From a virus, in IMG/VR virus record IMGVR_UViG_3300001598_000053, positions 1,029-65,028 of that record: a DNA stretch of 64,000 nt; one strand, given 5' to 3'. Numbering within the stretch: the stretch's first letter is position 1; the number at the start of each line of letters is the position of its first letter. Both the position numbers and the translations under genes were made by a program. Below the pieces are notes generated by a model that was not told the DNA's origin, did no database searches, and saw only the letters and a program-made list of their open reading frames with translations. Positions 37,254 through 64,000 of the stretch are shown one piece after another.

Positions 37254-37270
37254 TTTTTACAATTATTAAT

Positions 37271-37311: not shown

Positions 37312-37332
37312 TAGACTATTTGGAGGTTTAAT

Positions 37333-38750: not shown

Positions 38751-38833
38751 TTAAAAAATTAACTAATATTAACGTATATTATAATGTGATTAATTAAACG
38801 AAAGGAATATTTAAATATGGATTATTAATTGCA

Positions 38834-39964: not shown

Positions 39965-40079
39965 GATTCAGGCTCTGGCTCAGGCGACTAGTTAAAAAAT
40001 TACAAAAGATCTGCAAAAGCAGGTCTTTTTATTTTATCTTTATTGTATAATATAATATAAAACAAAGGAGATTTGTATT

Positions 40080-40388
40080 ATGATTAGATATGATTTAATT
40101 TATACAACAGTAGATCATGATGGCAGAGTTGTTGTAGTGGATTTCAATGTTACAAAAGTAAATGACCAATCGGAGAGCCAAGCTGAGATGTTAGATAGAA
40201 AAGCTTTAGATAAAGCTAATGGCATGTATAGACTTAAATATTATATTAGCAAAAATGAGTCTATTGCAACCACAGCAACAAGAGCATATAGACTTGTGAC
40301 AGACCATATGCTTTTTGGAGATATTGAGTCAGATATTAAATCGATATATGTAGATGATACAGATGTCGTTGAATGGAGAGCAAAATAA
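40080..40388 (+). CDS. hypothetical protein
   Basis: SD AAAGGAGA. Confidence 0.55.
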   Translation: MIRYDLIYTTVDHDGRVVVVDFNVTKVNDQSESQAEMLDRKALDKANGMYRLKYYISKNESIATTATRAYRLVTDHMLFGDIESDIKSIYVDDTDVVEWRAK

Positions 40389-40403
40389 TATAGGAGACAA
40401 TAA

Positions 40404-40739
40404 ATGAAATTATATAAGATTATTGATTGCAAAACATCTGTGCAGAATGAAAAAGTAACTGTCGTAAAGGTTACAATTTTAGATATGCGAGATAGCTATG
40501 AAACTTATGAAGCTGTCGGAAAAGCTTTTAAGCATCCAAACGATTCATTTAGTGATAAAGTTGGATATCGACTTGCTAGAGCGAGAGCAATTAGATCTGC
40601 CCTTAAGAAAATGCGCGCAGATTATAAATGGAGAGTAGCTAGAGCATATGAAGTGCTTGACTTGGCTAATGACTTAAATCGTCAAATTGCAGACCAAGAA
40701 GATTTCATCAACATTCTAGCTGACAGACAGGAGAAGTAG
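40404..40739 (+). CDS. hypothetical protein
   Basis: SD AGGAGA. Confidence 0.55.
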   Translation: MKLYKIIDCKTSVQNEKVTVVKVTILDMRDSYETYEAVGKAFKHPNDSFSDKVGYRLARARAIRSALKKMRADYKWRVARAYEVLDLANDLNRQIADQEDFINILADRQEK

Positions 40740-40848
40740 ACATGGATATAATTATCTTATCTATAATTAGCATTGTTCTAGCTTCTGCTTCTCTATGCTT
40801 GCTTGTTGCCAATGCTATTTTAAGAATGAAAATTGAGGGCAAAAAATA

Positions 40849-41079
40849 ATGGAATATCTTGAAATTGATGATAAAACAGTAGAAGAATTAAAAACCATTA
40901 TTAAAAAATCAGATGAATATTTACCTTTAACAAGCAGAGAAATAAGCATGTTATTTTTTTGGTCAAGAAACCGAGACAATCCTAGTTTGGAAGAAGTAAC
41001 CAATTTTGCCAATAAGTTAGAAAAATCACATAAGCAAAAAAGAAAATATTATTTTAGGAGAAAAAAGAATAGTGAGTGA
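40849..41079 (+). CDS. hypothetical protein
   Basis: SD GAGGG. Confidence 0.45.
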   Translation: MEYLEIDDKTVEELKTIIKKSDEYLPLTSREISMLFFWSRNRDNPSLEEVTNFANKLEKSHKQKRKYYFRRKKNSE

Positions 41080-41287
41080 AACAAAAGTAAAAGCTATAGC
41101 AGCATATTCTGCTAGCATAGTATTTACAATTCAAATTGCTTTTATTATTTTAAAATTAATCAATATCATAAACTGGGCATGGTATATTGTATTATTGCCA
41201 ACTATAATAGTTGGGTGCTTGGCATTATGCTTGTTTATACTTGCCATGTTTTGTGTAATGATTGCAGCTGGAAGGAGCGATAATTAA
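41072..41287 (+). CDS. small hydrophobic membrane protein
   Basis: GTG start overlapping upstream; two TM helices. Confidence 0.4.
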   Translation: MSETKVKAIAAYSASIVFTIQIAFIILKLINIINWAWYIVLLPTIIVGCLALCLFILAMFCVMIAAGRSDN

Positions 41288-41550
41288 TGGAAAACACAGA
41301 AGAAAAAAGAATTAAAAAACTAACACAGGATGCTTTAGATTATATTATTTCTAAGATCGATTCTTGTGCAGCGGACGATTCAAAATTAACAGAAGCATAC
41401 AATTTAGTTAAAGATGCTATTGATGCTTTACCTGAACCAAATCAGACTCTTGTAAAGATTTATATGCCTACAGACGTGTATGAATTGCCAGAGGTTAAAG
41501 AGGCATTCAACAATCTAAGTGAATCTCTTAATCGTGAGCCAGAGGAGTAG
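41287..41550 (+). CDS. hypothetical protein
   Basis: SD GGAAGGAG; ATGA-type overlap. Confidence 0.5.
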   Translation: MENTEEKRIKKLTQDALDYIISKIDSCAADDSKLTEAYNLVKDAIDALPEPNQTLVKIYMPTDVYELPEVKEAFNNLSESLNREPEE

Positions 41551-41555
41551 AATGC

Positions 41556-42026
41556 ATGAAAATTATTAAAGATGGAAAAGATTTTCGAACAGAGATAGTT
41601 AATAACTATAAGTTAGTCTGTGATAATTGTGATTGCGAGTTTGAGTTCACGCGCGCTGACGCTGAGTCTTTGTCTAAGATGATCAATGGAGGCTGAACTG
41701 TTCGATGCCCATATTGTGGCAAAATATTAGGATTTTCAAAAGCAAATGAGATCGGCACATCAGAAGAAAAAATTAAAATTCAAAAATTTACAAAAATAAA
41801 CTTACAATTGCAGCCTACTGTTGAGCCTTACACCTATCTTAACCCATATAAGAAAAATCATTGTACTGATTGTCCAAATAATCCAGCAAATGGTTCAAAT
41901 CATTTGACAATTGGAGATTCTCCATGTCAGTGGTGTCAATATGGAACGAGACCAACTTGCATAACAAATGAATCTAGCCAAACAGCATGCAATAATTTAT
42001 TAGATAAGTATGATTCAGAATTATAA
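41556..42026 (+). CDS. zinc-ribbon protein interrupted by in-frame TGA (41694-41696)
   Basis: SD AGAGGAG; CDNCDC before and CPYCGK after the TGA, in the same frame; no start/ribosome-binding site after the TGA. Confidence 0.45.
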
Positions 42027-42347
42027 TTGGAGATTTATGAAAATATGAAATTATATGAAGTTATTTTTCAAGACGAATACAATAATTTGTACCAATTAGG
42101 TTATTACAAATCTCTTTCTGACTCTATTAATGATATCAATAGCGAATTAGATTCTTATGGGGTAGCTATTAATGCAGACGATTTAGTGGAGTATCCAAGC
42201 ACATTTAACATGTGTTTTGATGCTTGCATTGGAGATTTAGTCGATGAAAAGATTTTAGACGAACATGAAGAAGTTTCTAGTTTGTATATTAGAGGATTTA
42301 TATTAGATTCTGACAGTTTATTAGAGGTTATTAATAATGGTAATTAA
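42027..42347 (+). CDS. hypothetical protein
   Basis: ORF (start possibly ATG 42045). Confidence 0.45.
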   Translation: MEIYENMKLYEVIFQDEYNNLYQLGYYKSLSDSINDINSELDSYGVAINADDLVEYPSTFNMCFDACIGDLVDEKILDEHEEVSSLYIRGFILDSDSLLEVINNGN

Positions 42348-42798
42348 TTGGGATGAATATTTTTTAGGCGTAGCGAAATTATCTGCGCTTAGGTCAAAGG
42401 ATCCTAATACACAAGTAGGAGCTTGTATCATAAATAATAGAAAGAAAATTGTTGGTGTTGGATATAATGGTTTTCCTACTGGCTGTGCAGACTCAATCTT
42501 TCCGTGGTCAAATCAGGGAGATAGAATCAATACAAAGTATCCGTACGTTGTCCATGCTGAAATGAATGCTATTCTAAATTCAACAACATCTCTAGAAAAT
42601 GGAACTATATATGTTACTTTATTTCCATGTTGCGAGTGTGCAAAAGCAATTATCCAAACAGGGATAAAAGAAGTAGTGTATTGCAGAAATTATAAAGATG
42701 ACGAGAGTAATTTTGCTTCTAAGAAGATGTTTGACGCAGCCGGAGTCAAATATAGAAAAATTAATGAAATCGAAATTGAGCTGCTAAAAAAAGAATAA
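42337..42798 (+). CDS. dCMP deaminase
   Basis: GYNGFPTG, HAEMNAI and PCCECAKAI zinc-binding motifs. Confidence 0.85.
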   Translation: MVINWDEYFLGVAKLSALRSKDPNTQVGACIINNRKKIVGVGYNGFPTGCADSIFPWSNQGDRINTKYPYVVHAEMNAILNSTTSLENGTIYVTLFPCCECAKAIIQTGIKEVVYCRNYKDDESNFASKKMFDAAGVKYRKINEIEIELLKKE

Positions 42799-42894
42799 AA
42801 ATAAGCTGAGAAATCAGCTTTTTATTTTACTAGTTTTATATATTAAAACTGTATATTATAATAGAACCACTACTTATTTAGGAGGAATGTTATT

Positions 42895-43134
42895 ATGATG
42901 TCTTTGGATACTCTTGTCAATTCAATCAGGGCACAAGAAAAAATTGAATTTAATGGAAAAGAATACGTGCTAAAAAATGTTATCGTTGCATCTGACTCAA
43001 ACGTTTTGCGTGCAAATTTGCATTTAAGCTCATGCGAATTTCCAAATGTTGACATGTATGTTGAGATTGTTTCGGTAGTCAGAGAGAACACAAATTTTCA
43101 TTTAGATCAAATTTCTTGCAGAGTGGAGAAATAA
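42895..43134 (+). CDS. hypothetical protein
   Basis: SD AGGAGG. Confidence 0.55.
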   Translation: MMSLDTLVNSIRAQEKIEFNGKEYVLKNVIVASDSNVLRANLHLSSCEFPNVDMYVEIVSVVRENTNFHLDQISCRVEK

Positions 43135-43137
43135 ATT

Positions 43138-43374
43138 ATGTATGGATTAGATATAAAAATTTCGCTTGCAGCTAGGAAGTTAGAAGAATTAGCAGATAAA
43201 GTGCTATCACTTGAGGAGTTAAAAAAAGAAAACAAATTAGATTCTGAAGGTGAAAAAATGCTCATCTCTTTGAAGGAAGAAAAAGAAGCTGTAAGCAAGG
43301 AATTTGATTATTATTATAAGCTTATGGCTGAGGAAGCAGATTTTATTGCGGCTGCTGCCGATTGTTTTGAATAA
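43138..43374 (+). CDS. hypothetical coiled-coil protein
   Basis: SD GGAGA; coupled. Confidence 0.5.
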   Translation: MYGLDIKISLAARKLEELADKVLSLEELKKENKLDSEGEKMLISLKEEKEAVSKEFDYYYKLMAEEADFIAAAADCFE

Positions 43375-43639
43375 TTTATTTAAAATATATAAAAAAATAT
43401 AAATTATATCGTATATTAATAATGTGAGGCGATAACACATAACACCAAATAGAGAACCTAGACTTATTTCTTCATACAAATAATAGGAAATTAATTATCA
43501 ATTTGTCCTTCACCGCAGTTGAGCAAATTGAATGAAACTAGTTAGGTCGATTATGTCATTTAGCGTTAGCGGTTCGTAAAAGCACTAAATGATTATAATC
43601 CATCAGTCTCTAAGTTGATTAAAGAAGGAGAATCAATTT

Positions 43640-45583
43640 ATGACAAATTTAGTAAACATTTTAACAGCAAGACACTATGTAGTTAATGGAAAGCAAGCAG
43701 ATAAGACAACTGCTGCCTATTTTAATGCATATCTTTTATCTAACTTTGGTATTGTTTTAGACAAGCCAGATTATGCTGACCACAAGGTTGTTGAAGCAAT
43801 TGCTAAGACTTATAATCTTACTGTTCCAGCATCATTTTATAAAAACCCACAAGATACAAAATATTTCACAAAGAGTGAACTTTTTGTTGAGCAATTAGTT
43901 TCTTATTTTGTCTATGAAATGGGAAATTATGATGTTGCAAGACTCGAGGTCTTTAAGAAAGATTTACCAGAATACACAAAAGGCAATGAACTTGTTTTAC
44001 GTGAATTCAAGGTATTAACATCCGATGAAGAGATTTCTACAGTATTAAAAGACATAGTTTCTGCTTATTGCGCTTACACTAGACCTTTTGGTTTAGATGA
44101 GTTAGAAGAATTTACATATTTATATGATAATGGTTTCTATTCTGATGAATATGTTGCATGTAAAGATAATGCTATTTCTATGCTTGACAAAAGTGTTAAA
44201 TTTGCAAGATTCTTAGACAAGAAGGACCTTGTTAAGCTGTCTGTTAAGTCTTTTGGTGAAAGAAAAGAATTAGATTCTTTTGTTGCGGCAGACAAGAAGA
44301 GCTTAGCTTTAATCAAAGCTTGCATGCCACTTGTAAAAGACTGTGCTATGTCTAAAAAGCAAGCAAAGTACTACAACAAGTTAGCTGCTATGTGTAGATA
44401 TGATGTTAAGAAAGCAACAAATGTTGAGTCTCCTTATAGATTAGCTAAGATTGCTTTAGATAATGGAAATATTCTTGAAGCGGCTAAAATCTATGCTGAT
44501 AATGGTTCTTTATTAGAAAGAAACATCAAAATGCTTTTATCAAGAGCTAATCCATTTGAAGCTGTTGAGATTTTAAATATGCTTCCAGCAAAAAATCCAA
44601 TTGCATTATATCAAATGGTTTCTGCTTTATCTGAAGATGATGGCTCAGCTAGAACTTTTACATTCACAAAGAATAATAAAGTTAAAAAGCATGTTGAGAC
44701 TGAATTTGAGGCTAAGTATAGAAAGTCTAATTTAAATGACTCTACAAGAAAGTTTTTACATGATACTTGTTTTGACAAGATTGATAGCTACTATTCTTCA
44801 TTAGAGTCATTAGGTAAGATTTATTTATCTGAAGACTTCTATAACTTAGGCGTTCCAACAAACACATCTGCTGGTGGAAAAGGAATTGATACTTTGCCTA
44901 CTGGTTCAAGAATCAAATGTCCATTTAAAAATATCAGATCTTTCGTTTATTGGAAAAACGTTTTCGATATAGATGCATCATTGACATTGGTTTATGCAAA
45001 TGGAAGAACTGAAATTGTTTATTTTGGTAACTATGCTCATAGCATGTCAAATGCTATCAGATTCTCTGGCGATGACCGCAGGTCATCTGGAGCAGAATAT
45101 TATGATTTAAACTTAGACCTTCTTGAAAAAGCTGGTATTAAGCAAGTATTATTCCACTTCAATGGCTTTGGCGGAAAGTTAAACCAAGGTGAAATCTACT
45201 GTGGTTATCAAAATAAAGCAGACTTAGATACAGAAGCTTGGGATCCAAAGAATATTGCTATGCAAATTCACGTTAAAGGTGATTCTCGCGCAGCTTTAGG
45301 TTTTGCAGTTGACTTAGCAACACGCGAAGTCGTTGTAATTAATCAAATGCTCGAATCTGGTGGTAGAGTTATGAATCCTGCAGACATTGATGTAGTTAAG
45401 AAAGTAATGTCTAGCTCATTCTTAGAATTGAACATGGGCAGAATCTTAGCTCACCGCGGCGAACTTGTTTCTTCTCCTGAAGAAGCAGATATCGTCTTTG
45501 ACGATTCTTATAAGCCAACTGAAGGCCAAAGTGTTGTAAGAACTTACGAGCTTGAAAAACTCGTAAGCTTCACAAATGCTTAA
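43640..45583 (+). CDS. large hypothetical protein (647 aa)
   Basis: SD AAGGAGA; no motif recognised. Confidence 0.6.
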   Translation: MTNLVNILTARHYVVNGKQADKTTAAYFNAYLLSNFGIVLDKPDYADHKVVEAIAKTYNLTVPASFYKNPQDTKYFTKSELFVEQLVSYFVYEMGNYDVARLEVFKKDLPEYTKGNELVLREFKVLTSDEEISTVLKDIVSAYCAYTRPFGLDELEEFTYLYDNGFYSDEYVACKDNAISMLDKSVKFARFLDKKDLVKLSVKSFGERKELDSFVAADKKSLALIKACMPLVKDCAMSKKQAKYYNKLAAMCRYDVKKATNVESPYRLAKIALDNGNILEAAKIYADNGSLLERNIKMLLSRANPFEAVEILNMLPAKNPIALYQMVSALSEDDGSARTFTFTKNNKVKKHVETEFEAKYRKSNLNDSTRKFLHDTCFDKIDSYYSSLESLGKIYLSEDFYNLGVPTNTSAGGKGIDTLPTGSRIKCPFKNIRSFVYWKNVFDIDASLTLVYANGRTEIVYFGNYAHSMSNAIRFSGDDRRSSGAEYYDLNLDLLEKAGIKQVLFHFNGFGGKLNQGEIYCGYQNKADLDTEAWDPKNIAMQIHVKGDSRAALGFAVDLATREVVVINQMLESGGRVMNPADIDVVKKVMSSSFLELNMGRILAHRGELVSSPEEADIVFDDSYKPTEGQSVVRTYELEKLVSFTNA

Positions 45584-45592
45584 GGTGATCGT

Positions 45593-45760
45593 ATGAGCGA
45601 AGCAGTAGAAACATTAATTCTTCTAAATAGAAGAGTTGAAAGATTGAACGAAGAGTATCTAACTGATGCTCCAAGTATAGTTAAGGAATTAGAGCTTAAA
45701 CTCATCATAGATGAATGTGAAAAGCTCTTAAATAGATTGCAAAAATCTAAAAATAAGTAA
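45593..45760 (+). CDS. small hypothetical protein (55 aa)
   Basis: ORF below track threshold; SD AAGGTGA. Confidence 0.35.
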   Translation: MSEAVETLILLNRRVERLNEEYLTDAPSIVKELELKLIIDECEKLLNRLQKSKNK

Positions 45761-45780
45761 TTTAAAAAGGGAGAAAACAG

Positions 45781-46137
45781 ATGTTTAAATTAGTTAGAGA
45801 CAACATTCCAGAAATCATGGCAAAAGAAGGCCAAGTCTGTGACGTAGCAGTTGCTCAATCAGACGAATTTTTCTTAAAATTATTAAATGGCAAATTAGTT
45901 GAAGAAGTAAATGAATATTTCTCTTCTCTTGCTGACGCTGACAAAGCATTAAATGAGTTAGTTGATATCATGACTGTCATTGGTGCATTAGCTGTAGCAA
46001 CTGGCCACACTCAAGAAGAATTCCAAGAAGCATATGCTGCAAAAATGAAAGAACGCGGCGGTTTCTCAAAGCGTTTAATCGGTTTCTTCCCTGACCAAGC
46101 ACCAGCTAAACAAGCTCAATCAGAACAAGAAAATTAA
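45781..46137 (+). CDS. MazG-like nucleotide pyrophosphohydrolase
   Basis: MFKLVRDNIPEI N-terminus and all-alpha EExxE-type region typical of the MazG/HisE family; SD GGGAGA. Confidence 0.6.
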   Translation: MFKLVRDNIPEIMAKEGQVCDVAVAQSDEFFLKLLNGKLVEEVNEYFSSLADADKALNELVDIMTVIGALAVATGHTQEEFQEAYAAKMKERGGFSKRLIGFFPDQAPAKQAQSEQEN

Positions 46138-46190
46138 TTACAATAGATAGACAAAACTGACGCCTAATAAGGCGTCTTTTTTACTATATA

Positions 46191-47183
46191 GTGGATACAG
46201 ATGGATTAAAAGAATCTTTAGACACTATTGTAGATGAGCTTGGCGGTGAATCGCCAGCACTTCCATCAAGAGATAGACTAAAGGATTATTTAGATGTAAT
46301 TATTGAGTGTCTTCAGCACGGCGGTGGTGGAGGAGAAGGAACCGTTGTTATTGCAAACCCAACTCTAGATGGTAGCGAAGACAGCCTAATTGGAATTAAG
46401 ATTGCTGGAACAAAATATAAAGTATCAGCTTCTCAACCTATTCCAACAAATTTGGTAACAACTGATTCTGTGCAAGAAATAACCGCAGAAAAAACATTTT
46501 CAGCTGGTGCAAAAACAAATGAGTTATTAGCCGGTGATTATTATATCAGTGGGAATGATCTTGCAGTAAAACGTCCTAATTCTGATGAGTTCGATGTCAT
46601 TATTAATGATATATCAGAGACAGAGCAAACAACTTTTGGACACATGTTTAACGACACCACAAATACAGCTTATATTGGTGGTGATACTGAAAATCCAAAA
46701 TATGTAACTCAAGAAGGTGAAGAAACAAAAATATATGATATCGCGTTAAAATCAGATTTACCAGACGTGTCTACTTTTGTAACAAAAGATACGGATAGCC
46801 TAACAAATTATACTAAAACTATTGACCTATCAATAGTCGCAACATCTGGCTCATACAATGATTTAGCTGACAAGCCAACAATCCCATCGATTGAAGGTCT
46901 TGCGACAGAAACATATGTAAATGAATATCATGACGGCACAAAACAGGATATTATTGATGCAGCTCACAAATTAGATTATTCTTTGCTTTCTAATACTCCA
47001 ACGATTACAGCTGTTGAGGCAAATCCAACTGCTGAAGCTACAGCTGAGTTAAGTAAATTAAAGGTTGGTGACAGCGTTTATAGACTCTCAGGCGGCGGCC
47101 AAACAGACATTGGGTTATCTATTGTCGACGGCTTAATATGCTGTACATATGAAGAAGCCTCAGAAGAAGGAGGTAATGAATAA
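46191..47183 (+). CDS. putative tail fibre/structural protein
   Basis: ORF (GTG start); GGGGGEG tract; adjacent to collagen-like fibre genes. Confidence 0.45.
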   Translation: MDTDGLKESLDTIVDELGGESPALPSRDRLKDYLDVIIECLQHGGGGGEGTVVIANPTLDGSEDSLIGIKIAGTKYKVSASQPIPTNLVTTDSVQEITAEKTFSAGAKTNELLAGDYYISGNDLAVKRPNSDEFDVIINDISETEQTTFGHMFNDTTNTAYIGGDTENPKYVTQEGEETKIYDIALKSDLPDVSTFVTKDTDSLTNYTKTIDLSIVATSGSYNDLADKPTIPSIEGLATETYVNEYHDGTKQDIIDAAHKLDYSLLSNTPTITAVEANPTAEATAELSKLKVGDSVYRLSGGGQTDIGLSIVDGLICCTYEEASEEGGNE

Positions 47184-47788
47184 TGGCACAAGTAACAAAA
47201 CCAATTTTATTAAATGAAACTGGTATCTCAATTAAAGAACAATTAGAAGCGCCTGTTCAAAAAGCCATTGTTCTTAGAGGTCCAAAAGGTGATACTGGAA
47301 CAAGTATCACAAAAATAGAAAAAACATCCACAGAAGGATTAATAGACACATATACAATAACCTTTTCGGACAATACAACAACCACTTTTACGGTTGCAAA
47401 TGGCGAAAAAGGCGACAAAGGTGACACTGGAGATAAAGGCGAAACTGGTGAAACAGGTCCTCAAGGTCCAGTGCCACTTGCTATTTATCGTAATTTCATT
47501 GACACACGTGAAATAGGCGCGACCGTAACAATTTCATTAAATACATTTAATAGAACTCCTATTATTGGAGATATGGCAATGAATGTTGATGGCAGTGGAA
47601 ATTTCTGCACATGGCTAGTTATTGATGTAACAGCAACTAATGCTACTATAGAATTAAAAGCAATGATTAGTATTAAGGGTCCAAAAGGCGATAAAGGTGA
47701 TCCAGGTATGACAAAAGCAGAAATAGAGTCTTATATTGGTGCTTATATTTCTACCCACTATGAAGATGCAGATAAAGGAGCTTATTAA
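47183..47788 (+). CDS. collagen-like repeat (G-X-Y) tail fibre protein
   Basis: GEKGDKGDTGDKGETGETGPQGP and GPKGDKGDPG repeats; SD AGGAGGT. Confidence 0.6.
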   Translation: MAQVTKPILLNETGISIKEQLEAPVQKAIVLRGPKGDTGTSITKIEKTSTEGLIDTYTITFSDNTTTTFTVANGEKGDKGDTGDKGETGETGPQGPVPLAIYRNFIDTREIGATVTISLNTFNRTPIIGDMAMNVDGSGNFCTWLVIDVTATNATIELKAMISIKGPKGDKGDPGMTKAEIESYIGAYISTHYEDADKGAY

Positions 47789-47790
47789 TT

Positions 47791-49557
47791 ATGAAAGACA
47801 AAGCATTTATTAGCACTTCACACTTAGTTTTAATCGGAGACGCAATTAGACTAAAGGAACAGTCAACTGAAGCTGTGCCAGTTTCTGAAATGGCTGATAG
47901 AATAAAGAATATAAAGACCGCAGCTGGCTTACAAATCATAATGAATGATCACATAGACGAAGATGGCAAATGGCAAAAACCTGCTGATTGGGATGATATT
48001 GAGAGCATGGACCTTACTGGTCAAAATGTCTGTTATATTTTATGCGGCACTAAATTGCTGGCCAACTCATATGCAGAATTTTATACTGATTACGAAGGAA
48101 CTTGCAAGGGTTCTTATGGACACATATCTGATGGAGTATTTACAATTTATCCCGGCACAGAAGAAACAGTGATCAATAGCTCAACAAAGAGATATGGCGT
48201 AGACCTTGAGACATTGCAGCCAACAGACGACTATATTGTTGTAAAAATTGAAAGCACTGGTGCACTAAAACAGGTCAAAACTTCAAATTCAACAGAATTA
48301 TCAGGCAGTAAGCCATACACTACCGCGAACACATGCTGTGTATTGATGAGATACGCAAGATTTACAAAAGCAAACAACTTATGTTTTAATAGCTATTTCC
48401 TAGAAAGTGATAGACTTGTTGATTGTGGTATAGATATTAGAGATACAACAAATGTTATAACAATGTCTGGAATGTACCAAAACAACTATCATTTACAGCG
48501 TATTGATTGGGGCGATTTTAACCCAGCTAGACATAAAATAACATCATTTAATTATATGTTTGCAAGTTGTTATCACCTTACTGATGTTCCAGACCCACTA
48601 AATATGACGGGCTGGGTAACATCGAACTGTACAAAATTAGATTCAATGTTCCAGAACTGCTTCTGTTTAAAATCAGAACTAATTGTTAAGAACTGGGATG
48701 TTACAAAAGTTACAAGTATGCAATCTTTTTTAAATAACGCTAGAAGCGTTTCTAAATTAACTGGTTTTGATACTTGGACTACAGCTCCAGTCTGCACAAC
48801 AATTGCAAACTTCGCAACCAATGCATACAGCATATCCGGAATACTAGATTTTTCAAAATTAGCGTTTACAGATAAGTTATCTTGCTCATTAGCAAGTGCA
48901 TTCGTATACACTTACAGATTGGATAAGATTATCTTTAATAAATGTAATTTTTCTAATATTACAAGTATGGGAAGCGTATTCCAATATTCAGGAGTAAAAG
49001 AAGTAGTTTGGGATACAGACTTTATTGCCCCTGGTGCAAAATGCGCAACATTTGGAACAATGTTCGCTTCGTGCACTTGAATAAAAGAAGTTATATTTGA
49101 CGGATGGAACTTCTCTTATGCAACAGGCAGTAGAACATTAGGCAATATGGTCAGCGGTGCACATAGTATGGATAAGATAGTATTCAAAAATAATATTTAT
49201 CCTACCGCTTATAAAGATGATGGAGCCAATGCTAGCCCATTATATCAATGTACAACAATGATATATGCTGATTTTTCAGAATTTGATATGAACACTTGCA
49301 CAACAAAAACAAATATGCATCTATCTCTTGTTGATAGCTGCACAATGTTGCAAGAATTTTATCCACCACAGCATTTAAGCAAAAGCATAAAATTAAGTGC
49401 ATCAACAATGTTATCACATGATTCTCTAATTAGGGTAATAAACAATCTCGATACTGTTACGACTGCCACAACATTAACATTAGGAGCAATAAATCTTGCT
49501 AAACTTACAGATGAAGAAAAAGCAATGGCAACAACGAAAGGATGGACGTTAGCATAA
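47791..49557 (+). CDS. repeat-containing (LRR/BspA-like) tail protein with in-frame TGA at 49078-49080
   Basis: ORFs 47791-49080 and 49147-49557 share one frame; the periodic MFxxC...W repeat continues across the TGA; no ribosome-binding site for the downstream part. Confidence 0.5.
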
Positions 49558-49765
49558 TATGAAAACACGTGAAACAAAATACTTTATAGAGTTGTCGCCA
49601 GCTGTTGGCATGAGACTTACAAATAAAGAAAAAACAGAGGTATATGAATCAAATATATATATATCTACCAAAAAACGCGGCTTTATATACAAATATAGAT
49701 AGTTATATAGAGATTACAGAAGAAGAAGCACAGCAAATTATTGCTACTATTGAAGGAGAGTAACT

Positions 49766-52700
49766 ATGGCACAGATAACAAAACCAATAATGCTCGATGA
49801 AACCGGAAAAGATATAGTTGAGCAATTAGAACAATTGAACAACGTAGCCGTAGGAGTAAAAGGTGACAAGGGCGATAAAGGAGATGCCGGCGCTGATGGC
49901 AAGTCTCCACATATAGATGAGTCTACAGGCCACTGGTTTATTGGAACTGAAGACACTGGAGTAGTTGCAAAAGGTGAAAAAGGTGATAAGGGTGACAATG
50001 GCTCTGAAGTGTCAGCTAGCGATACAGGCACAAGTACAACAGTTGCAAAATATATAACAATTGATGATACAGAATATAAATTAGGTGGAAGTGGTGAGAT
50101 GTCAAAATCTGACATGGAAGCTAAAGGTATGGTATCATCAGTAAATGGTATTAATCCAGTTAGTGGCAATGTGACTATTGAAGTATCTAGCGGAGGAATA
50201 TCCGATGCAAAGAAAAAAGCTGAGCTATCTTATTACCGTTATATGGAAAACACAGCTGGTGATACAGTTAAGCCATATATGAAAGCATTGAGAAATGCGA
50301 CATTAGATATGGATGAATTTAAAAAATTAGGCTCTGGTCTATTTATTCACTGGGGTGTTTATTCAGTGCCAGCTGGAACATATACGGGTCCAAAAGTTGA
50401 AACTGCAACAACGACCACGACAAAAATGACAAGAAACTGCGAATGGGCGTTGAGAGACATGGGAATTCCTCTAGATACATATAGAAATTTTCAAGATCAA
50501 TTTACAGGAACTGAATTTGACCCAGAAGAAATAACTCAAATGGCAGTTGACTGTGGTATGAAATATATCATTATTACTGCAAAACACCATGAAGGATTCT
50601 CACTATATCCAACAAATTATGGACAGTGGGATATTAGAGAATCAGCCTGTAGAACAACAATTTTAGATGAATTAAAAGCTGCTTGCGATGCAAGAGGCCT
50701 AAAATTTGGTGTTTATTATTCACAATATTGGGACTGGGAGGCTGTCGGTGGATATGGATTAAATCATGGTGGCAAATGGACGACAACCGATCCATACACA
50801 TCTGCTCAACACTCAAAATTTATAGCAGACGTTGCTAATCAGGTTGAAGAAATCGTTGAGAAATATGATCCATATATCTTATGGTGGGATCCAGGAACGA
50901 AGTATACTGATGGATGCCAAGAAACTTTGAGAGCCGCTGAAAATGCAAGATGGCCTCAAGTTATCACTAACGATCGTTTAGATTATAATAGAGACTATGG
51001 CGACTATGGAACGGGTGAAAGAACCATTTATTTAAAAGATAGTGGAACTAGACAATTAGATTAGGGCGAATCTTGCTTTACGTTAAATAATACTTGGGGC
51101 TATTCACAAAATAACGAAACAGAGTCTTGGTATTATACACCAGAAAAAATATTTAAAGAATTCTGGCTATACACTATTTCAAATGGCCAAAACTGTTTAA
51201 TGAATATTGGACCTAAACCAGATGGTTCTATTCCTGATTTAACTAAAACAAGATGAAATCAAATGAAAACATTCATTCAAAATTATAGTAGTGGTAGCTT
51301 CTATAATTATAAGAAAATGTTCAAAACTACTCGTCCAACTTGGGGATATGCAGTAGGTTTCCCAAATAACAGCGTATATTGTTATGTTATCTCTACTAAC
51401 AATACATTAAGTGCTGAGACAATAATTGACGGTGTTGATACGACTGGACTAAAAACAACAAATCCAATTGAGATTTTAACTCCAGGAACAAATGCATCAT
51501 ACGAGATATTAGATAATTATAGAATCAAAATTACAAATCTAGCTCTTGATACAACAACTAAAATTGGTGTGGTCAAGTTAAACTATGCGGCTGACCCACT
51601 ATTAGTAGATGCTGTAGCCATGACTGATTCATATAGAATCCCAATGTCAGTATTTATTCCAAATTATTCATTCAAAGATTCATATACTGTAGCAAGCAAA
51701 CAGTATTCTTTAGGAAAAGGAAAGACGTTATCAAGCAATCCTGAAATTATTTTGGTAGACGACGATATGTATTGCAGTGCTAGACTTGATATTAACTATA
51801 GTGCAAATCAAACTGGCTCATATATTACTGAAATAACAATTACTGATAAAGCAGATTCTACAAATACAAGCACATTAACAATAAATTGTCCATCTAAAAC
51901 AGCTATTGTAAAAGAAAGTACTGATGTATTCCATTTTGAAAATGGACATAGATATAGTATTACTTATAAAACTTCTTCGTCAAGTACTGATACGACAGCA
52001 GCTACACACATGGCATTTACATTCTTCAAGAATGAAGACGCAGCAGTAACAGGTGTAACGCTTGCTCCAGACACAGCAGAAATGAACCCTGGAGATGAAG
52101 GTGTTATTTATACAGCAACAGTAGCGCCAGCAAACGCAGCCAATAAAAACGTAACATTCTCTTGTGAAAATGCAAATGTAACGTTAACACCTATTGGCCA
52201 AAATCAAGTAAAAGCGGTTGGAACAGGATATCAACAAATTAATACTACTATAAAAGTTACTACAGAAGATGGTGGATTTGAAGCAACATCTGCATTTAGC
52301 TACAATGTAACATTAGCAGAAACAGTTACGGTATCCCCAAATGGATTAACATTACCAATTAATTCAGCCGATGCCGCTACATTGACAGCCACAGTTGCTC
52401 CCGAAACAGCATCATTCAAAGAAGTTAATTGGTCAACAAGCAATGCGGCTGTAGCTACAGTAAATAATGGCGTAATCAACACATTAGCTGAAGGAACGGC
52501 TACTATCACAGCAACATCAAAAGACGGAGCTGCTAGCGGAACAGCCAATATAGCAGTTCAAGATATTCAAGTCATTCCAGTCGATAGCGTATCATTAGAT
52601 GTAAATACATTAGATTTAATGGAATGTGAATTAGCAACACTAAATGCAACTGTATTACCAGCTAATGCAACATTTAAAGCATTGACTTGGGAATCTAATA

Positions 52701-53620
52701 ATGATAATGTAAAGGTAATTGTAGACCCTGATGATGATACAAAAGCACAACTTGTCGTATTAGAAGGTGCGCCTACTGGAACAGCTACTATTACTGTAAA
52801 GACGACTCATCATGAAGAGGGCGAGGCAGCTAAACAAGCAACTTGCTCAATAAATGTAGAAGCCGAAGTTGTTAATAAATTATATGCAGCAAGCACTTTA
52901 AGTGGTTTGAAAGATGATGATAGCATTGAAGAACCATCATTATATCCATTTAGTGATGATGAACTTAACTGGACGATATTCGCTTGGGCATTTGGTTCAG
53001 CTAACCCAGCCACAGCGAGTGGCGTAGAAACAGGCACTGCAGGTCCTAATGATACAAACGCGACATTATTCCAATGTGTTAAGAATGCTTCAAGCTGGAA
53101 CGGATTTAGAGTCGACGCTGATACAAATACTGTAAAGCCTAGTACTACAAATCCATCAGGCTTGAGACCTAGATGGAATGCCTCAACTAATTTATATATG
53201 AACCCGCAGACAAAAGAGACTAGCACATCTTCTATAAATGTTAGTGGACCTACAAGTACGACTGTAGTGCATCCAATCTATTTGTCTAGAAAAACTGCAG
53301 ATGGTGCTGCTTGGAATCAATCAACATATTGGTGGTCTTGGGATGGTGTAAGCTGGAATCAATACAATGTAAGCACATCAACTTCTGGTGGAACAGGCGA
53401 ATTACGCAATATCAACGCGCCACTTACTGTATTCTATGACCTCCAAAGAAGCAGTGGACAGCTTACAAGCAACAAGTATCGTTTCTTAAAGACTGCTGGA
53501 TTACCAGACGAGCGTGCTTGTGTTGCATTCACTATACAAGCTCATTATAAGTTTGCAAAGCAATTGAAGACTTATGACAGAGAAGTAAAACAGGCTTATG
53601 ATACAGCTTTAAACAGCTAG
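49766..53620 (+). CDS. tail fibre: collagen-like N-terminus, GH29 alpha-L-fucosidase-like domain, Big_2 Ig-like repeats; in-frame TAG (51062) and TGA (51254)
   Basis: Single frame 49766-53620. GH29 motifs FIHWGVYSVPA, KYIIITAKHHEGFSLY, ILWWDPG, then after the TAG: WGYSQNNE ... NCLMNIGPKPDGSIP (GH29 C-terminal consensus). Big_2-like VTLAPDTAEMNPGDEGVIYTATVAPANAANKNVTFS repeats. Confidence 0.55.
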
Positions 53621-53716
53621 TTAAGTGTTAAAAACAATTATGCCGGCATAAAAAGTCGGCCTAATTGTATTTTTATTGAGATAAATATTGTATAATAGAA
53701 TAAAGGTGGTGAGATA

Positions 53717-53905
53717 GTGAAAATCGTTCGCAGAGAAAATGAATCAACTGAAGATTTATTAAGAAGATTTAAGACTTGGTATAAGAAATCAGGAATTAAA
53801 GAAGAATGTAGAAAACGCGAGTATTTCTTGAAAAAGTCTTTAAGATTAAAAGAAAAATCTAAGCAAGCAAGAATTAGAAACAAAAAGAAAAGCAGAGCTA
53901 ATTAG
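53717..53905 (+). CDS. rpsU: ribosomal protein bS21 homolog (phage-encoded)
   Basis: VKIVRRENESTEDLLRRFKTWYKKSGIKEECRKREYFLKKS...RIRNKKK matches the bS21 consensus (VRENE..D.ALRRFK....G.L.E.RRREFYEKP); GTG start after SD AAAGGTGG; own promoter TTGAGA-N17-TGTATAAT. Confidence 0.65.
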   Translation: MKIVRRENESTEDLLRRFKTWYKKSGIKEECRKREYFLKKSLRLKEKSKQARIRNKKKSRAN

Positions 53906-53952
53906 GCCCTGCTTTTTTAATAGATTTAATAAATAAAAATATTATTCTACTA

Positions 53953-53973
53953 TTATTTGCTAAATTAATTGAT
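53953..53973 (+). promoter_or_regulatory. putative late promoter motif TTATTTGCTAAATTAATTGAT
   Basis: upstream of tail fibre gene 54011. Confidence 0.5.
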
Positions 53974-54010
53974 TAAAATTAAAATTTAATGCAAAGGAGA
54001 TTATGATAGT

Positions 54011-56041
54011 ATGGCAAGTAACTATAAATTAAAATTTTCTGGCGCACAAGTTGATGCTAGATTAACGCAAGTAAGCACCAACTCCGAGAATTTAGCAAAA
54101 TTAGAAACAAAGGTAAATTCAAATAAAACAGAACTTAGTGACAATATTAGTAATGCACTACAATCAGCAAAAAACTATACAGATGAAGAAATAAATAATC
54201 TAGATGCCACACGAAGTCAAGATGCTTCAAGTGATAACGGATACTTACAACTATCTATTACTGAAGTCGATGGCAAGGTCACTAGTATTTCTGGAAGTAT
54301 CAGTCACACAGAAGCAGTGCAGTCAGCGAAAGACTATGCAGACGCTAAAATTGCTGATTTAGACACAACACAGAACCAAGACGCTTCAGACGATAACGGA
54401 CATTTACAGTTATCTATTACTGAAGAAGATGGCAAAATTACTAGCATTTCTGGTAGTGTAAGTCATACGGAGGCGATAGAGTCAGCAAAAACTTATGCAG
54501 ATACAAAATCAACTCAAGCTCAGAATGCAGCAATTTATAATGCACATACATACACAGATGATGCAGTAAAAGGGCATAAGATAGTGCTTACAAGACATGA
54601 GCCAACTAGTTATGCAGAACTTGATCAAACTACTATTGGCGATAAGAATGCTATATTCACAGAAGAAGGAACATACAAAATAAGTATTGATTGCCTTAAG
54701 CAATTTGCATTGGCATTAGCTTTACCGAAGTTTAAAGGACCAACGTATGATCTATATTTCAGAGTTCAATGTCCTATCAGCGATACACTTGATATCTTAA
54801 TATTTGGTCTAGCCGTAGAGAACGGAGATATATATTCAATTTATGTAGAATCAGACCACCAAGGAACAATTTATGAGTGGAATTGTGGAACTACTTATAG
54901 TGATGAACTTTCAAACTATATTATTACTAACACCAGTTCAAGTATATCTAATTATGACTTCAGGTTTTATGATAACGGCGAGTATTTCACTGATATTATA
55001 AATGATTCTTCTGATCCAGATGAAAGAGCAAAGACTTTTATAAAAGTTTGCCCATTCTATAAGGTTATAGGAGTTCAAGCAATACCAAATGAAAATAATA
55101 TCCTACATTTAAATAAATCATATTTAGAAAGTCCAGATAATTATATAGATGCGGCACATTTATCAAAAACACATTGTAATAACGATTCTCATGTAGCTAT
55201 TGGCGAGTACAATAGACCATTATTAAATAATGACCAAGCGATTAGTGATGAGCGTCAGCTTTTAACTGTTGGTAACGGTAGCTCTGACTCAAATGTTAGC
55301 AATATTCTTGATGTAACGACAGATAGAGTGTGTATCGGCCCTACTTCTGATAACAATTATTTATTCACTGTGGCAAAACAAGGCGAAAAAGATAGTGAAA
55401 CACTTCTTGGCGTCAATAAAAATGAAGAGTATGTATTTGCTAAGAGATTAACTATTGACAGATCTGCATCAACAGGAGAAGAAAATGAAGTAGCAACGCA
55501 TGGAGATATTCACAGCATCATTGATGATAAAATTTCTTCTTTAGATGCTACAAAATCACAAACAGCTTCTAGCTCAAACGGATACTTAGCTTTATCTGTA
55601 GCTGAAACTGATGGCAAAATCACTAGTATCTCAGGTTCTGTAGACTCATCTAAATATCAATCAAAATTAGTAAGCGGAACTAATATTAAAACAGTCAATG
55701 GAAATAGCATTTTAGGCACTGGTAATATAGAAGTTTCAGGTGGTTCAGGTGGATTGTACATACATTATGTACAGTTTAAGCAAACAAATGGTATCTTGAC
55801 TAGAACATATTTTTATTGTAGTAAAGATACACCTTTTACGAATATTGACGAATTAAAAGGATATATTTTTGAGAAAAATCCTACATATAGTTATGTTACA
55901 CTTGCTTGTTCGGGTCTTAACCAAAACGGTCTATCTATTAGTCATATAACTGTTTCTACTAGTGATGTATCTATTACTTATAATAGTGCAGATACATTCA
56001 TTGTAACCTCAATATATTCTAGTGCTTGTTACAAAGTATAA
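54011..56041 (+). CDS. tail fibre protein with ~50-aa internal repeats
   Basis: Repeats DATRSQDASSDNGYLQLSITEVDGKVTSISGS(I/V)SHTEA x3; late motif 53953-53973; strong terminator 56161-56203. Confidence 0.6.
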   Translation: MASNYKLKFSGAQVDARLTQVSTNSENLAKLETKVNSNKTELSDNISNALQSAKNYTDEEINNLDATRSQDASSDNGYLQLSITEVDGKVTSISGSISHTEAVQSAKDYADAKIADLDTTQNQDASDDNGHLQLSITEEDGKITSISGSVSHTEAIESAKTYADTKSTQAQNAAIYNAHTYTDDAVKGHKIVLTRHEPTSYAELDQTTIGDKNAIFTEEGTYKISIDCLKQFALALALPKFKGPTYDLYFRVQCPISDTLDILIFGLAVENGDIYSIYVESDHQGTIYEWNCGTTYSDELSNYIITNTSSSISNYDFRFYDNGEYFTDIINDSSDPDERAKTFIKVCPFYKVIGVQAIPNENNILHLNKSYLESPDNYIDAAHLSKTHCNNDSHVAIGEYNRPLLNNDQAISDERQLLTVGNGSSDSNVSNILDVTTDRVCIGPTSDNNYLFTVAKQGEKDSETLLGVNKNEEYVFAKRLTIDRSASTGEENEVATHGDIHSIIDDKISSLDATKSQTASSSNGYLALSVAETDGKITSISGSVDSSKYQSKLVSGTNIKTVNGNSILGTGNIEVSGGSGGLYIHYVQFKQTNGILTRTYFYCSKDTPFTNIDELKGYIFEKNPTYSYVTLACSGLNQNGLSISHITVSTSDVSITYNSADTFIVTSIYSSACYKV

Positions 56042-56160
56042 CATTCTCGCATTCACTCGTTGCCTATTGCCTAGGTGGAAATCGCACTAGCAAAGTGCCA
56101 TCTCGGACAAGAGTTGATTACTCCATACAAGTAATTGAGTGAATCTTGAATATAAATGAA

Positions 56161-56203
56161 AACACACTCTCGACCATATAGGTCATATGAGAGTGTGTTT
56201 TCT
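56161..56203 (+). terminator. intrinsic terminator: 11-bp perfect stem AACACACTCTC / GAGAGTGTGTT + T-tract
   Basis: follows tail fibre gene stop (56041). Confidence 0.7.
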
Positions 56204-56232
56204 TGTGCTAAAAGGTAATAAGGAAATGACAA

Positions 56233-56264
56233 GCCGAAGAGTAAAGGAGGGAAACCTCTTCGGC
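56233..56264 (-). terminator. hairpin GCCGAAGAG / CTCTTCGGC, terminator for minus-strand ORF 56269-56964 (bidirectional pair with 56161-56203)
   Basis: 9-bp stem immediately after the minus-strand ORF stop. Confidence 0.55.
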
Positions 56265-56268
56265 AATA

Positions 56269-56964
56269 TTATTTTAACATATCGATGAGCATTGTTACAA
56301 TAGTAGCCGTTTCTTGCCGGTCGAAATTGCAAGAGCCTTGGAAGAACATAGTCAATAAATCACGATACTCCACAGATTGTTTATACGATTGAATGATTAG
56401 CTTATTATGTCGGTCATTGACATACAATTGTAATCTATTAGGGTCGAAGAGACCATCGTACTTTTCAATCCATACTCGATAGTCCTCTTTGTGCATCTTG
56501 TCCCAATAAATCCAAAATGACAGGGTGATGTCATTGTAGCCTAGTCGATACCAAAGATGAGTTTGTCTTGGTTTCTCGATGATTTCATATCTGTCTTTTG
56601 TGAGTACCTTGTTGTTGTAGTGATACTCTGCATATGTTGTGCCTTGTGTCCACCGATAGAGAGGTGTTTCTTCTTCCAGTTTTAGCAACTCTTCTTTGGT
56701 TGGGCATTTCTCGACATACAAGCCTCGATTTCTGTCTATGTATGACTTCTCAAACTCTGGAATGTTGAAATAGGTGATGTATGGCATAAACAAGTCGAGA
56801 TTATTGGACAAGAGGAACAACTTGTAATCCTTCCTAGTTCGTGTGATCGTTGAGACCAACTCCAAGAGATGATGTGGTTCATCCTTGAGGTAGTGCTTAT
56901 TCGAACCTCTCATCAAGCCGACTTCATCATAGATGATGTATTGGTCTCGAACGTAAAAAAGCAA
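56269..56964 (-). CDS. hypothetical protein (only sizeable minus-strand ORF); Walker-B-like IIYDEVG, possible truncated P-loop ATPase
   Basis: ORF bounded by bidirectional hairpin terminators; no Walker A found upstream (in-frame stop 8 codons before start). Confidence 0.4.
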   Translation of the reverse strand: MLFYVRDQYIIYDEVGLMRGSNKHYLKDEPHHLLELVSTITRTRKDYKLFLLSNNLDLFMPYITYFNIPEFEKSYIDRNRGLYVEKCPTKEELLKLEEETPLYRWTQGTTYAEYHYNNKVLTKDRYEIIEKPRQTHLWYRLGYNDITLSFWIYWDKMHKEDYRVWIEKYDGLFDPNRLQLYVNDRHNKLIIQSYKQSVEYRDLLTMFFQGSCNFDRQETATIVTMLIDMLK

Positions 56965-56975
56965 GCGGTTGGGTA

Positions 56976-57584
56976 ATGCCTGGCAATCCTATTGGAGGTA
57001 GTTTTGATCATGATGGAAATTTAGCACCTCTGATTGCACTTACGCATGACGACAGTGAAAAATATAATGGCTATGAGAAATGGGCTGTATATAGAGAACT
57101 AACAACCTCGCAGCGCGTTCACCAAATAGGTAGTGAAATTTTAAGTTCCTTTAGAGATTTTGCTATATATATAGACGTTCCGGCAATTTTATATAATACT
57201 ACAAATAAAGATAAAATACCAAGCGGCTATGAATTTACTCTAACTTATAAGTCAAACTTTTCATACGATAAGGGTCTTGGAGAAGGCCAATTCACTTATA
57301 TGGATCATGACGCACTAAGGTCAGAGTCTGCCTATGCTCAAACTATTGATTATACGGCACAGCCAGATTTTACTGGTCATGTATCTGCTAGAAAATCCAT
57401 TCATTCGCAAACGCAAAATGGATATATTGGGCACAATGCTAAAGAAAGATTTAGATTTGCCTTATATAAAAAAGTATATACATCAGAAAATTCTGCTAAA
57501 TTAATTAGAATATCTGAATATTCAGCAGAATTATGTATAGAGATGATTAGAAAAGGAAGTTATAAAGCTTCGGTAAAACGTTAA
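56976..57584 (+). CDS. hypothetical protein
   Basis: ORF, weak ribosome-binding site. Confidence 0.4.
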   Translation: MPGNPIGGSFDHDGNLAPLIALTHDDSEKYNGYEKWAVYRELTTSQRVHQIGSEILSSFRDFAIYIDVPAILYNTTNKDKIPSGYEFTLTYKSNFSYDKGLGEGQFTYMDHDALRSESAYAQTIDYTAQPDFTGHVSARKSIHSQTQNGYIGHNAKERFRFALYKKVYTSENSAKLIRISEYSAELCIEMIRKGSYKASVKR

Positions 57585-57752
57585 TATATAATAATTTGTT
57601 TCTTTTGCCCCAGTAATTTCGTTGCCATTAGACGCGATATGTAATTTACTTGAGACTACTCGGTATATTTATTGCCTTAGAAGCTATTCGAGGCATGTGG
57701 GAGTTTTATATTTATACTAAAAATGCAGTCAGTTTAGGCTGCTTTTTTATTA

Positions 57753-57773
57753 CTATTTGCTAAATTAATTGAT
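57753..57773 (+). promoter_or_regulatory. putative late promoter motif CTATTTGCTAAATTAATTGAT
   Basis: upstream of phoH; identical 19/21 to the 53953 copy. Confidence 0.5.
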
Positions 57774-57818
57774 AGAATTTATCTATCTAGATTGAAAAAT
57801 AGGAGATATATTATAGTG

Positions 57819-58748: not shown

Positions 58749-58818
58749 TTGTAAAAATTTTTATGATAAAACTGTATATTAAAATATGAAAAATAAAAGG
58801 ATAAGGAACAGATAAAAT

Positions 58819-63688: not shown

Positions 63689-63762
63689 ACAGGCGTAGTT
63701 CAATGGCAGAACGCCACCTTGCCAAGGTGGTCATGCGAGTTCGATTCTCGTCGCCTGCTCCA
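63689..63762 (+). tRNA. tRNA-Gly (anticodon GCC)
   Basis: D-stem GTTC/GAAC, anticodon stem CCACC/GGTGG loop TTGCCAA, T-arm GCGAGTTCGATTCTCGT, acceptor (A)CAGGCG/CGCCTG(C), disc U, CCA. Confidence 0.75.
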
Positions 63763-63830
63763 TGGAAAATAAAAATTTTCCAAAAAAAATATTTACAATG
63801 CAAAAAACGCACTGTATAATATATAGTTGT

Positions 63831-63906
63831 GGAGCGTTGGTGTAGCGGTAAACATGCTTGCCTGTCACGCAAGAGATCACAGGTTCGAATCCCGTACGCT
63901 CCGCCA
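63831..63906 (+). tRNA. tRNA-Asp (anticodon GUC)
   Basis: acceptor GGAGCGT/ACGCTCC, anticodon stem CTTGC/GCAAG loop CTGTCAC, T-loop GGTTCGAATCC, CCA; own TTTACA-N17-TGTATAAT promoter 63793-63821. Confidence 0.85.
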
Positions 63907-63907
63907 C

Positions 63908-63957
63908 TTTGGGCCAGTAGCTCAACTGGGAGAGCGCGAATATAGCTAGTCCATTTG
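63908..63957 (+). other. tRNA-like 5' fragment (acceptor + D-arm identical to tRNA-Val D-arm) closing into a short helix; possibly another split/intron-containing tRNA truncated by window end
   Basis: GGGCCAG-TA-GCTCAACTGGGAGAGC then no T-arm before TTGGCCC. Confidence 0.25.
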
Positions 63958-64000
63958 GCCCCGTCGACAAGCGGTTAAGTCACCGCCCTTTCACGGCGGG

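Follow-up and report, generated by a model that had tools for sequence, protein, structure and literature searches.

The 64,000 nucleotides of viral DNA considered here (IMG/VR record IMGVR_UViG_3300001598_000053, positions 1,029 to 65,028; hereafter the window) represent about 64 kb of a large uncultured phage whose genome probably exceeds 200 kb. Three genes of this phage are interrupted by in-frame TGA and TAG codons, four in number, past which the reading frame and its homology carry on. The phage does not use a reassigned genetic code, and we give an even chance to the reading that its in-frame nonsense codons are tolerated through suppression or readthrough, the lineage being prone to recoding and its few stops perhaps marking a transitional stage. 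An earlier interpretation made from the sequence alone (the original prediction), which saw late-gene stop-codon recoding or programmed readthrough, is in part supported. The interrupted genes are as follows.

41556..42026, plus strand: zinc-ribbon gene, 156 codons, with TGA 41694-41696 in its translation between two CxxC knuckles
47791..49557, plus strand: DUF285 repeat protein gene (Pfam DUF285, E 5e-16), 588 codons, with TGA 49078-49080
49766..53620, plus strand: fibre-like protein gene, 1284 codons encoding a collagen-like N-terminus, a GH29 alpha-L-fucosidase domain, Big_2 domains and a conserved C-terminal domain, with TAG 51062-51064 and TGA 51254-51256

Translation of the three frames (156, 588 and 1284 codons) places the four stops exactly where they had been predicted. 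All plus-strand stop codons of the window with at least 45 open codons on each side were scanned, and only these four TGA or TAG codons lie inside real frames; the remaining matches are TAA codons between neighbouring genes, with the next start within 0-9 nucleotides (nt), or fall off-frame inside larger genes. The other ~100 genes of the window are uninterrupted, as had been claimed. The window, a contig of the Joint Genome Institute (JGI), was compared with Logan contigs assembled independently from run SRR1221442, which cover ~29 kb of it (33640-47431, 47404-54049, 54028-59712 and 61142-63983). Within this shared sequence the two assemblies differ at three points only.

46191: GTG in the window, ATG in Logan; start codon of a gene of 330 amino acids (aa)
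51256: A in the window, G in Logan
63438: T in the window, C in Logan

TGA 41694 (also present in Logan contig L006), TGA 49078 (within a DUF285 region that is identical in Logan contig L014) and TAG 51062 are the same in both assemblies, and assembly error is excluded for these three. The fourth differs: over 6646 bp, L014 departs from the window at position 51256 alone, and since the Logan assembly of the same run reads TGG there, the stop at 51254 is polymorphic or assembler-dependent. Systematic miscalls through base modification were considered and rejected, the four changes sharing no direction. As a separate observation, two of the three inter-assembly differences, both of them A/G, affect translation signals, one being at a start codon and the other at a stop; the 330-aa gene with the polymorphic start sits upstream of a collagen-like fibre protein.

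Each interrupted frame corresponds to a single gene, as predicted, with continuous orthologs for all three. The zinc-ribbon frame gives a weak Pfam Zn_ribbon_9 match, and its homologs, of 134-180 aa, are full-length and cover both halves of the protein, including the C-terminal GDSPCxWC motif. The orthologs of the DUF285 gene are likewise continuous (594 aa in contig L015, 588 aa in contig L016). Open reading frame (ORF) calls for the fibre gene give 432 and 785 aa in the JGI contig and 806 aa in the Logan contig, and Pfam Alpha_L_fucos (E 5e-57) aligns unbroken over both fibre stops at aa 182-507, as do solved GH29 structures. The fibre orthologs recovered by protein search (P0122-P0127; 1022-1293 aa, 47-60% identity) are colinear with it from the N-terminal region through the last residues. 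No ortholog was seen to terminate at one of the stops and to be followed by a separate downstream ORF.

Reinitiation finds no better footing in the translation signals. A Shine-Dalgarno core of at least 4 nt accompanies 25 of 31 well-supported starts, and AGGAG stands at the starts of all three interrupted genes, in the zinc-ribbon gene upstream of ATG 41556. Such a core is present at none of the four candidate restart codons past the stops (41808, a TTG in the zinc-ribbon gene, 49147, 51200 and 51263), which agrees with the original prediction that no ribosome-binding site follows them. Genuinely split genes would combine restarts bearing ribosome-binding sites with split orthologs, and all orthologs are continuous. 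The RNA downstream of the stops folds with z-scores of 0.72, -0.36, -1.93 and -1.36, none of them significant, and an Rfam search found no selenocysteine insertion sequence (SECIS) or other element at the stops. Selenocysteine incorporation and cis-programmed readthrough were rejected on these grounds and because orthologs carry sense codons at the stop positions.

The sequence beyond the stops shows no sign of decay. Past the successive stops run 109, 158, 63 and 787 codons free of frameshifts and further stops. The DUF285 protein is as conserved after its stop as before it (relative-rate counts over aa 431-588 of 12 vs 12), and the 63 codons between the fibre TAG and TGA, 87% identical to P0122, form the best-conserved part of that protein. 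Over fibre aa 498-1284 the relative-rate counts are 88/83/80 vs 91/85/80 with outgroups P0124-P0126, 97 vs 75 with P0123 and 79 vs 72 with P0127; with these five fibre outgroups the branch leading to the window is not longer downstream of the stops. Looked at as pseudogenes, the three genes have frames disrupted relative to intact orthologs, without the relaxed constraint downstream; the only candidate second hit is the polymorphic TGA 51254. Random substitutions would create a stop in these three genes in 3.6-5.2% of cases. For assumed indel-to-substitution ratios of 0.05-0.2, which are those of generic mutation spectra, the probability that four disruptions would comprise four nonsense codons and no frameshift is 0.001-0.09. 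The main argument for a specific tolerance of in-frame stops is twofold: all disruptions are nonsense codons, and the sequence past them is undecayed.

The codons and residues that orthologs carry at the stop positions are more ambiguous. A sense codon such as TGG had been named as something to look for there, and TGG does occupy the column of TGA 51254, where the closest ortholog P0122 has Trp (TGG, in L015) and other orthologs have Leu. Elsewhere the columns hold other residues: the column of TGA 49078 is Gly, encoded by GGA, in both orthologs (L015 and L016), that of TGA 41694 is variable (A, K, P, L, Q, G, R, Y, M, I), and that of TAG 51062 reads Y, Y, V, V, Y, V, Y, Y, with codons TAC (L015) and TAT (L016). 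Over these four sites only, the residues facing TGA are thus Trp/Leu, Gly/Gly and variable, and those facing TAG are Tyr/Val. At each of the three sites with a known ortholog codon the stop is a single substitution away (GGA to TGA, TGG to TGA, TAC to TAG).

The TAG had also been placed near or at a conserved GH29 Trp. Its ortholog column is Tyr or Val instead; the canonical Trp position is the next residue, which is Gly in this phage family. By alignment with the fucosidase AlfC, D200 and E274, which we take to be the GH29 nucleophile and general acid/base, correspond to D375, before the TAG, and E435, two residues after it. Fucosidase activity would accordingly require readthrough of the TAG, since the nucleophile precedes it and the acid/base follows.

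The window as a whole obeys the standard code. Nearly all of its ~107 ORFs lie on the plus strand, and they end in 74 TAA, 22 TAG and 11 TGA codons, the latter two together accounting for 33. Within the three interrupted genes, 3 TGA face 35 TGG and a single TAG faces 56 CAA/CAG. With the standard code, ORFs of at least 450 nt make up 0.55 of the window; reading TGA as sense takes this to 0.61, and reading TAG as sense to 0.60. The fibre gene itself and its neighbour, a homolog of ribosomal protein bS21, both terminate in TAG.

53618..53620, plus strand: TAG terminator of the fibre gene; the C-terminus aligns with that of P0122, whose gene also ends in TAG
53717-53905, plus strand: bS21 homolog, 62 aa (Pfam PF01165, E 8e-11), GTG start, TAG stop

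The next in-frame stop past the fibre terminator is a TAA, 24 codons on. TGA terminators are absent from the region between 45.6 and 57.6 kb in which the fibre gene lies, although only ~11 genes are found there. A late-gene-specific reassignment of two stop codons, the strongest form of the original prediction, is contradicted by the low density of in-frame stops, and the TAG-terminated fibre gene, the alternation with TGG and the inconsistent fit of residues lend it no support. The companion claim that late structural genes only are affected turned out to be an assumption, because the zinc-ribbon gene adjoins a dCMP deaminase gene and not structural genes. Use of code 25 or code 4 by the host was likewise rejected, as TGA terminates 11 ORFs and TGG far outnumbers TGA. 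Immediately after the fibre gene, whose translation is the matter at issue, comes the bS21 gene, a phage-encoded component of translation.

Stop-codon recoding, which the original prediction cited from Lak-like and crAss-like phages, does occur among relatives of this phage. More than 500 homologs were found for a 647-aa gene of the window (43640-45583), and many of them lie on contigs of 200-237 kb. Two contigs of 29-30% GC content, L003 (IMGVR_UViG_3300021400_000048) and L004 (IMGVR_UViG_3300028797_000094), carry this gene at 57% and 48% identity. Some of their genes contain 4-13 in-frame TGA with 0-4 TGG, and adjacent genes are devoid of TGA and use TGG normally. Taking TGA as sense raises coding density from 0.64 to 0.88 in L003 and from 0.69 to 0.90 in L004. 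Both look like cases of TGA-to-Trp recoding interleaved with standard-code genes around the 647-aa gene, TGA being read as Trp because TGA and TGG are complementary between genes; a blastp search on these two contigs for the amino acid at TGA gave only antisense-frame artefacts over nrdD.

Other relatives have altered TAG. L016 (Logan SRR9184938_29272) contains 52 in-frame TAG in 17 kb and L039 (Logan SRR9184936_870; 220 kb) contains 180 in 23 kb (14 genes). In the genes examined in these two contigs TAG is never a terminator, and many TAG fall on Gln columns. Their fibre orthologs carry 6-17 and their DUF285 orthologs 9 in-frame TAG, read as Gln; in the fibre gene of L016, three of six align with Gln. 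The orthologs carried by L015 and L022 are clean and follow the standard code. Each of the recoded relatives found has changed one stop codon and none has changed two, and their in-frame stops are 10-50 times denser than those of the window. One gene of L039 matches the crAss_MUZ muzzle-protein domain, and the same contig encodes a 2002-aa protein. The low coding density of two further relatives, L005 and L001, was rejected as a sign of recoding, since it is due to a cluster of 23 tRNAs. Inside the 23-tRNA cluster of L005, a 201 kb relative, ARAGORN calls a tRNA with a two-base, undetermined anticodon 'ca' (17474-17549).

Among relatives the DUF285 and GH29 genes occur as a conserved pair, and in the window both belong to a larger fibre module.

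45593..57584, plus strand: variable fibre module containing two of the three interrupted genes, with PHROG tail-fibre matches for 47183-47788
56269-56964, minus strand: homolog of the phi29-type DNA encapsidation ATPase gp16 (PF05894, E 1.4e-17)

The module comprises a collagen-like protein, the DUF285 protein, the GH29 fibre, bS21, a 676-aa protein and the gp16-like ATPase. It is a variable insert, because contigs L010-L013 pass directly from a 652-aa homolog of the 647-aa gene to genes for PhoH and an HslV-like peptidase, the module being absent. The gp16-like ATPase gene is the only clear minus-strand gene of the window.

A source of suppression was sought among the tRNAs and translation factors. 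The original prediction counted seven tRNAs; six are complete, one is broken and one is truncated at the contig end.

59679..60338, plus strand: tRNA cluster 1 (ARAGORN, Rfam), with Val-UAC, Thr-UGU, Ile-UAU and Gln-UUG
63689..64000, plus strand: tRNA cluster 2, with Gly-GCC and Asp-GUC, followed by the 5' half of one tRNA fused to a tRNA-Glu(UUC) that is truncated by the contig end

As had been stated, no suppressor tRNA with anticodon UCA or CUA is present in the window, which shows ~30% of the genome, either with ARAGORN in default and relaxed modes or with Rfam. Relaxed ARAGORN gave 31 calls, mostly intragenic, among which an antisense 'tRNA-SeC(tca)' over tRNA-Ile was treated as a false positive. 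Pfam searches of the ORFs tested in the 64 kb saw no release factor and no Trp or Gln tRNA synthetase. Cluster 2 had been described as running off the end of the window. It is indeed cut off there, and the two assemblies disagree at the contig end: Logan contig L020 parts from the window at 63936, in a tRNA D-arm, contains a complete tRNA-Ala(UGC) at 2769-2842 and ends at window position 63983. The last part of the window (63909-64000) is probably a misjoin between tRNA genes, and the tRNAs listed for this end of the contig are not to be relied on, because the assemblies diverge inside a tRNA. An exact-pattern scan of viral contigs with the window's contig end gave no match, and a scan of metagenome contigs with PhoH as query yielded no more than three relatives, all of them short and lacking tRNA regions of any use. 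In published surveys, suppressor tRNAs are detected in only 35-40% of recoded phages. The tRNA-Ile with anticodon UAU, an uncommon means of reading AUA, is kept in the tRNA clusters of relatives (window 60091-60167, L001 12190-12266, L005 14171-14247).

If nonsense codons are tolerated through suppression or readthrough, the three genes would each have gained one or two single-nucleotide nonsense codons while full-length translation persisted, presumably at reduced efficiency or at an efficiency that depends on the late phase of infection. UGA would probably be read as Trp and UAG probably as Gln. A tRNA gene in the remaining, unseen genome could supply the suppressing activity, as could leaky termination in the host. 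The phage would then be a standard-code yet stop-tolerant organism, displaying a sparse and perhaps transitional form of the late-gene recoding that is complete in its relatives. A more specific version of this idea, which we consider unlikely, holds that UGA and UAG are both decoded ambiguously, at low density and late in infection, making this lineage a living intermediate at the branch point of TGA- and TAG-recoded sister lineages. Under such ambiguous decoding, stops would arise by ordinary nonsense mutation at tolerant sites and remain polymorphic with sense codons before the loss of terminators.

Several observations weigh against suppression or readthrough. The ~30% of the genome that is visible offers no UCA or CUA tRNA, release factor or Trp/Gln synthetase. 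Two different stop codons would need to be suppressed, and both the recoded phages of the publications consulted and the recoded relatives found change one. The fibre gene and the bS21 gene next to it themselves end in TAG. The TGA columns share no common residue, with Gly in both orthologs at one site and Trp/Leu at another. The stops are one substitution from the closest-ortholog codons (GGA, TGG, TAC), as plain nonsense mutations would be, and early neutral decay would also account for a TGA/TGG polymorphism that follows a fixed TAG. Finally, the lineage, and with it the stops, is known from one sample only, the nearest homologs of its 647-aa protein being just 65% and 60% identical.

The best-surviving alternative is recent loss of function, a serious explanation that we nevertheless think somewhat improbable. 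Here the stops would be ordinary nonsense alleles of dispensable accessory genes, namely host-range fibres and a small zinc-ribbon protein, fixed or at high frequency in one population, and the genes young pseudogenes in which translation ends. The single-step origin of each stop from a sense codon of orthologs (GGA, TGG, TAC) suits this explanation, as do the use of TAG and TGA as normal terminators across the window, the fibre gene included, the failure to find suppressor machinery in it, and the want of a single amino acid that fits the TGA sites. The site at 51254, still polymorphic with TGG, comes after a TAG that is fixed, and a further mutation at such a place would be neutral. Moreover, the fibre module is a variable insert absent from some relatives, and the stops fall inside domains, so that truncated products would be inactive. 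The pattern of disruption argues the other way: all four are nonsense codons, with neither frameshift nor deletion (P ~0.001-0.09 under generic spectra), three separate genes have been struck and none of ~100 others, and divergence is not in excess past the stops. The conservation of the DUF285 and GH29 pair across relatives further argues for the importance of these genes.

Quite unlikely is a mixed situation, in which UGA is leaky or suppressed and the zinc-ribbon and DUF285 genes are functional, the amber codon being a true knock-out of the GH29 fibre with the TGA/TGG site drifting neutrally behind it. Of the stop codons UGA is the leakiest, and some Firmicutes read it as Trp at a low level. 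All three TGA are followed by A, the TGA/TGG polymorphism does lie downstream of the TAG, and the relatives that carry the 647-aa gene, L003 and L004, recode TGA and not TAG. On the other hand, the fibre sequence past the TAG is undecayed, the fibre orthologs of relatives recode TAG, and four sites are too few to separate this mixed case from the other readings. Full late-gene reassignment, with TGA and TAG both sense late in infection by means of phage suppressor tRNAs as in Lak or crAss-like phages, appears very improbable: its attraction is that relatives are truly recoded in the same gene families, and it is opposed by the far too low density of in-frame stops, by a coding density nearly unchanged under alternative codes, by the fibre gene ending in TAG and by the failure to find a relative with two recoded stops. 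Least credible of all are an artefact, to which the one stop in four that differs between assemblers and the contig end misjoined in a tRNA might point but which three stops identical in two assemblers oppose; truly split, reinitiating genes, for which neither a Shine-Dalgarno sequence or suitable start past the stops nor split orthologs were found; and cis-programmed readthrough or selenocysteine, given the insignificant downstream structure (z 0.7 to -1.9), the lack of an Rfam element and stops that are not conserved in orthologs.

The remainder of the window informs on the host, which uses Shine-Dalgarno sequences and is probably anaerobic. An anaerobic lifestyle is indicated by the auxiliary genes taken together: within 33347-34547, 38834-39964 and 6026-8760, the phage encodes a HAD_SAK_2 domain protein, a formate/nitrite transporter (PF01226, E 2e-29), an SPFH/Band 7 protein and the anaerobic ribonucleotide reductase NrdD. 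A megablast of 43640-53620 against the INPHARED phages returned no match, nor did a sequence search of the PDB with the 647-aa protein.

Stop-codon recoding of late genes is established in gut and rumen phages (Lak, crAss-like, Agate, Jade and others), where TAG becomes Gln (code 15) or TGA becomes Trp (code 4) (Borges et al., bioRxiv 10.1101/2021.08.26.457843; PMC7886860; PMC9523058; jumbo phages PMC13037316). According to the published route, TAA-biased, low-GC relatives acquire suppressors, after which in-frame stops appear first in structural and lysis genes (bioRxiv 10.1101/2021.08.26.457843). The phage described here resembles these cases in that in-frame TGA and TAG occur in fibre and structural-type genes of a low-GC, TAA-biased, tRNA-rich large phage with clean replication and nucleotide-metabolism genes, and in that close relatives differ in code. 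It also resembles the standard-code relative predicted by the published model, in which stops first emerge in structural genes once a suppressor has been acquired. It differs in that in-frame stops are 10-50 times less dense, in that TGA and TAG are both in-frame, even inside one gene, and in that both codons still serve as terminators, including that of the interrupted fibre gene. Furthermore, the window contains no suppressor tRNA or release factor, and one of its sites is polymorphic with TGG.

Isolated in-frame stops under purifying selection in bacteria have been read as frequent readthrough (Belinky et al. 2021, PMC7918605). These cases share with ours isolated nonsense codons in conserved genes, intact downstream sequence and no dedicated recoding signal; they concern cellular genomes and cross-species conservation, unlike the one population observed here. 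Classical amber and opal phage mutants offer a further parallel, with single-nucleotide nonsense codons in phage structural genes and a function dependent on a suppressor acting in trans. The am mutants of T4 are rescued by suppressor tRNAs, and psu tRNAs are known in T4 itself. Those mutants are laboratory-made, whereas several codons are affected here in the consensus of a natural population. The A1 protein of Q-beta is produced by programmed UGA readthrough, and selenocysteine is also inserted at UGA. Both share with our case an in-frame UGA followed by continued coding; unlike them, the stops described here have no conserved downstream RNA element, are unconserved and lie inside folded domains and not at the boundary between a short and an extended product.

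Changes of genetic code are usually inferred from end states. If the stops of this phage are read through, it would offer a rare snapshot of the ambiguous-intermediate stage, in which the code is otherwise standard, a few stops have appeared in fibre-type genes and one of them segregates against TGG, in a group whose relatives have completed the change in two different directions. The order of events, from suppressor gain through the first in-frame stops to terminator loss, would then become testable on real material. If they are plain knock-outs, the finding would be an ordinary one, and would counsel caution against calling recoding from sparse in-frame stops in the vicinity of recoded lineages.

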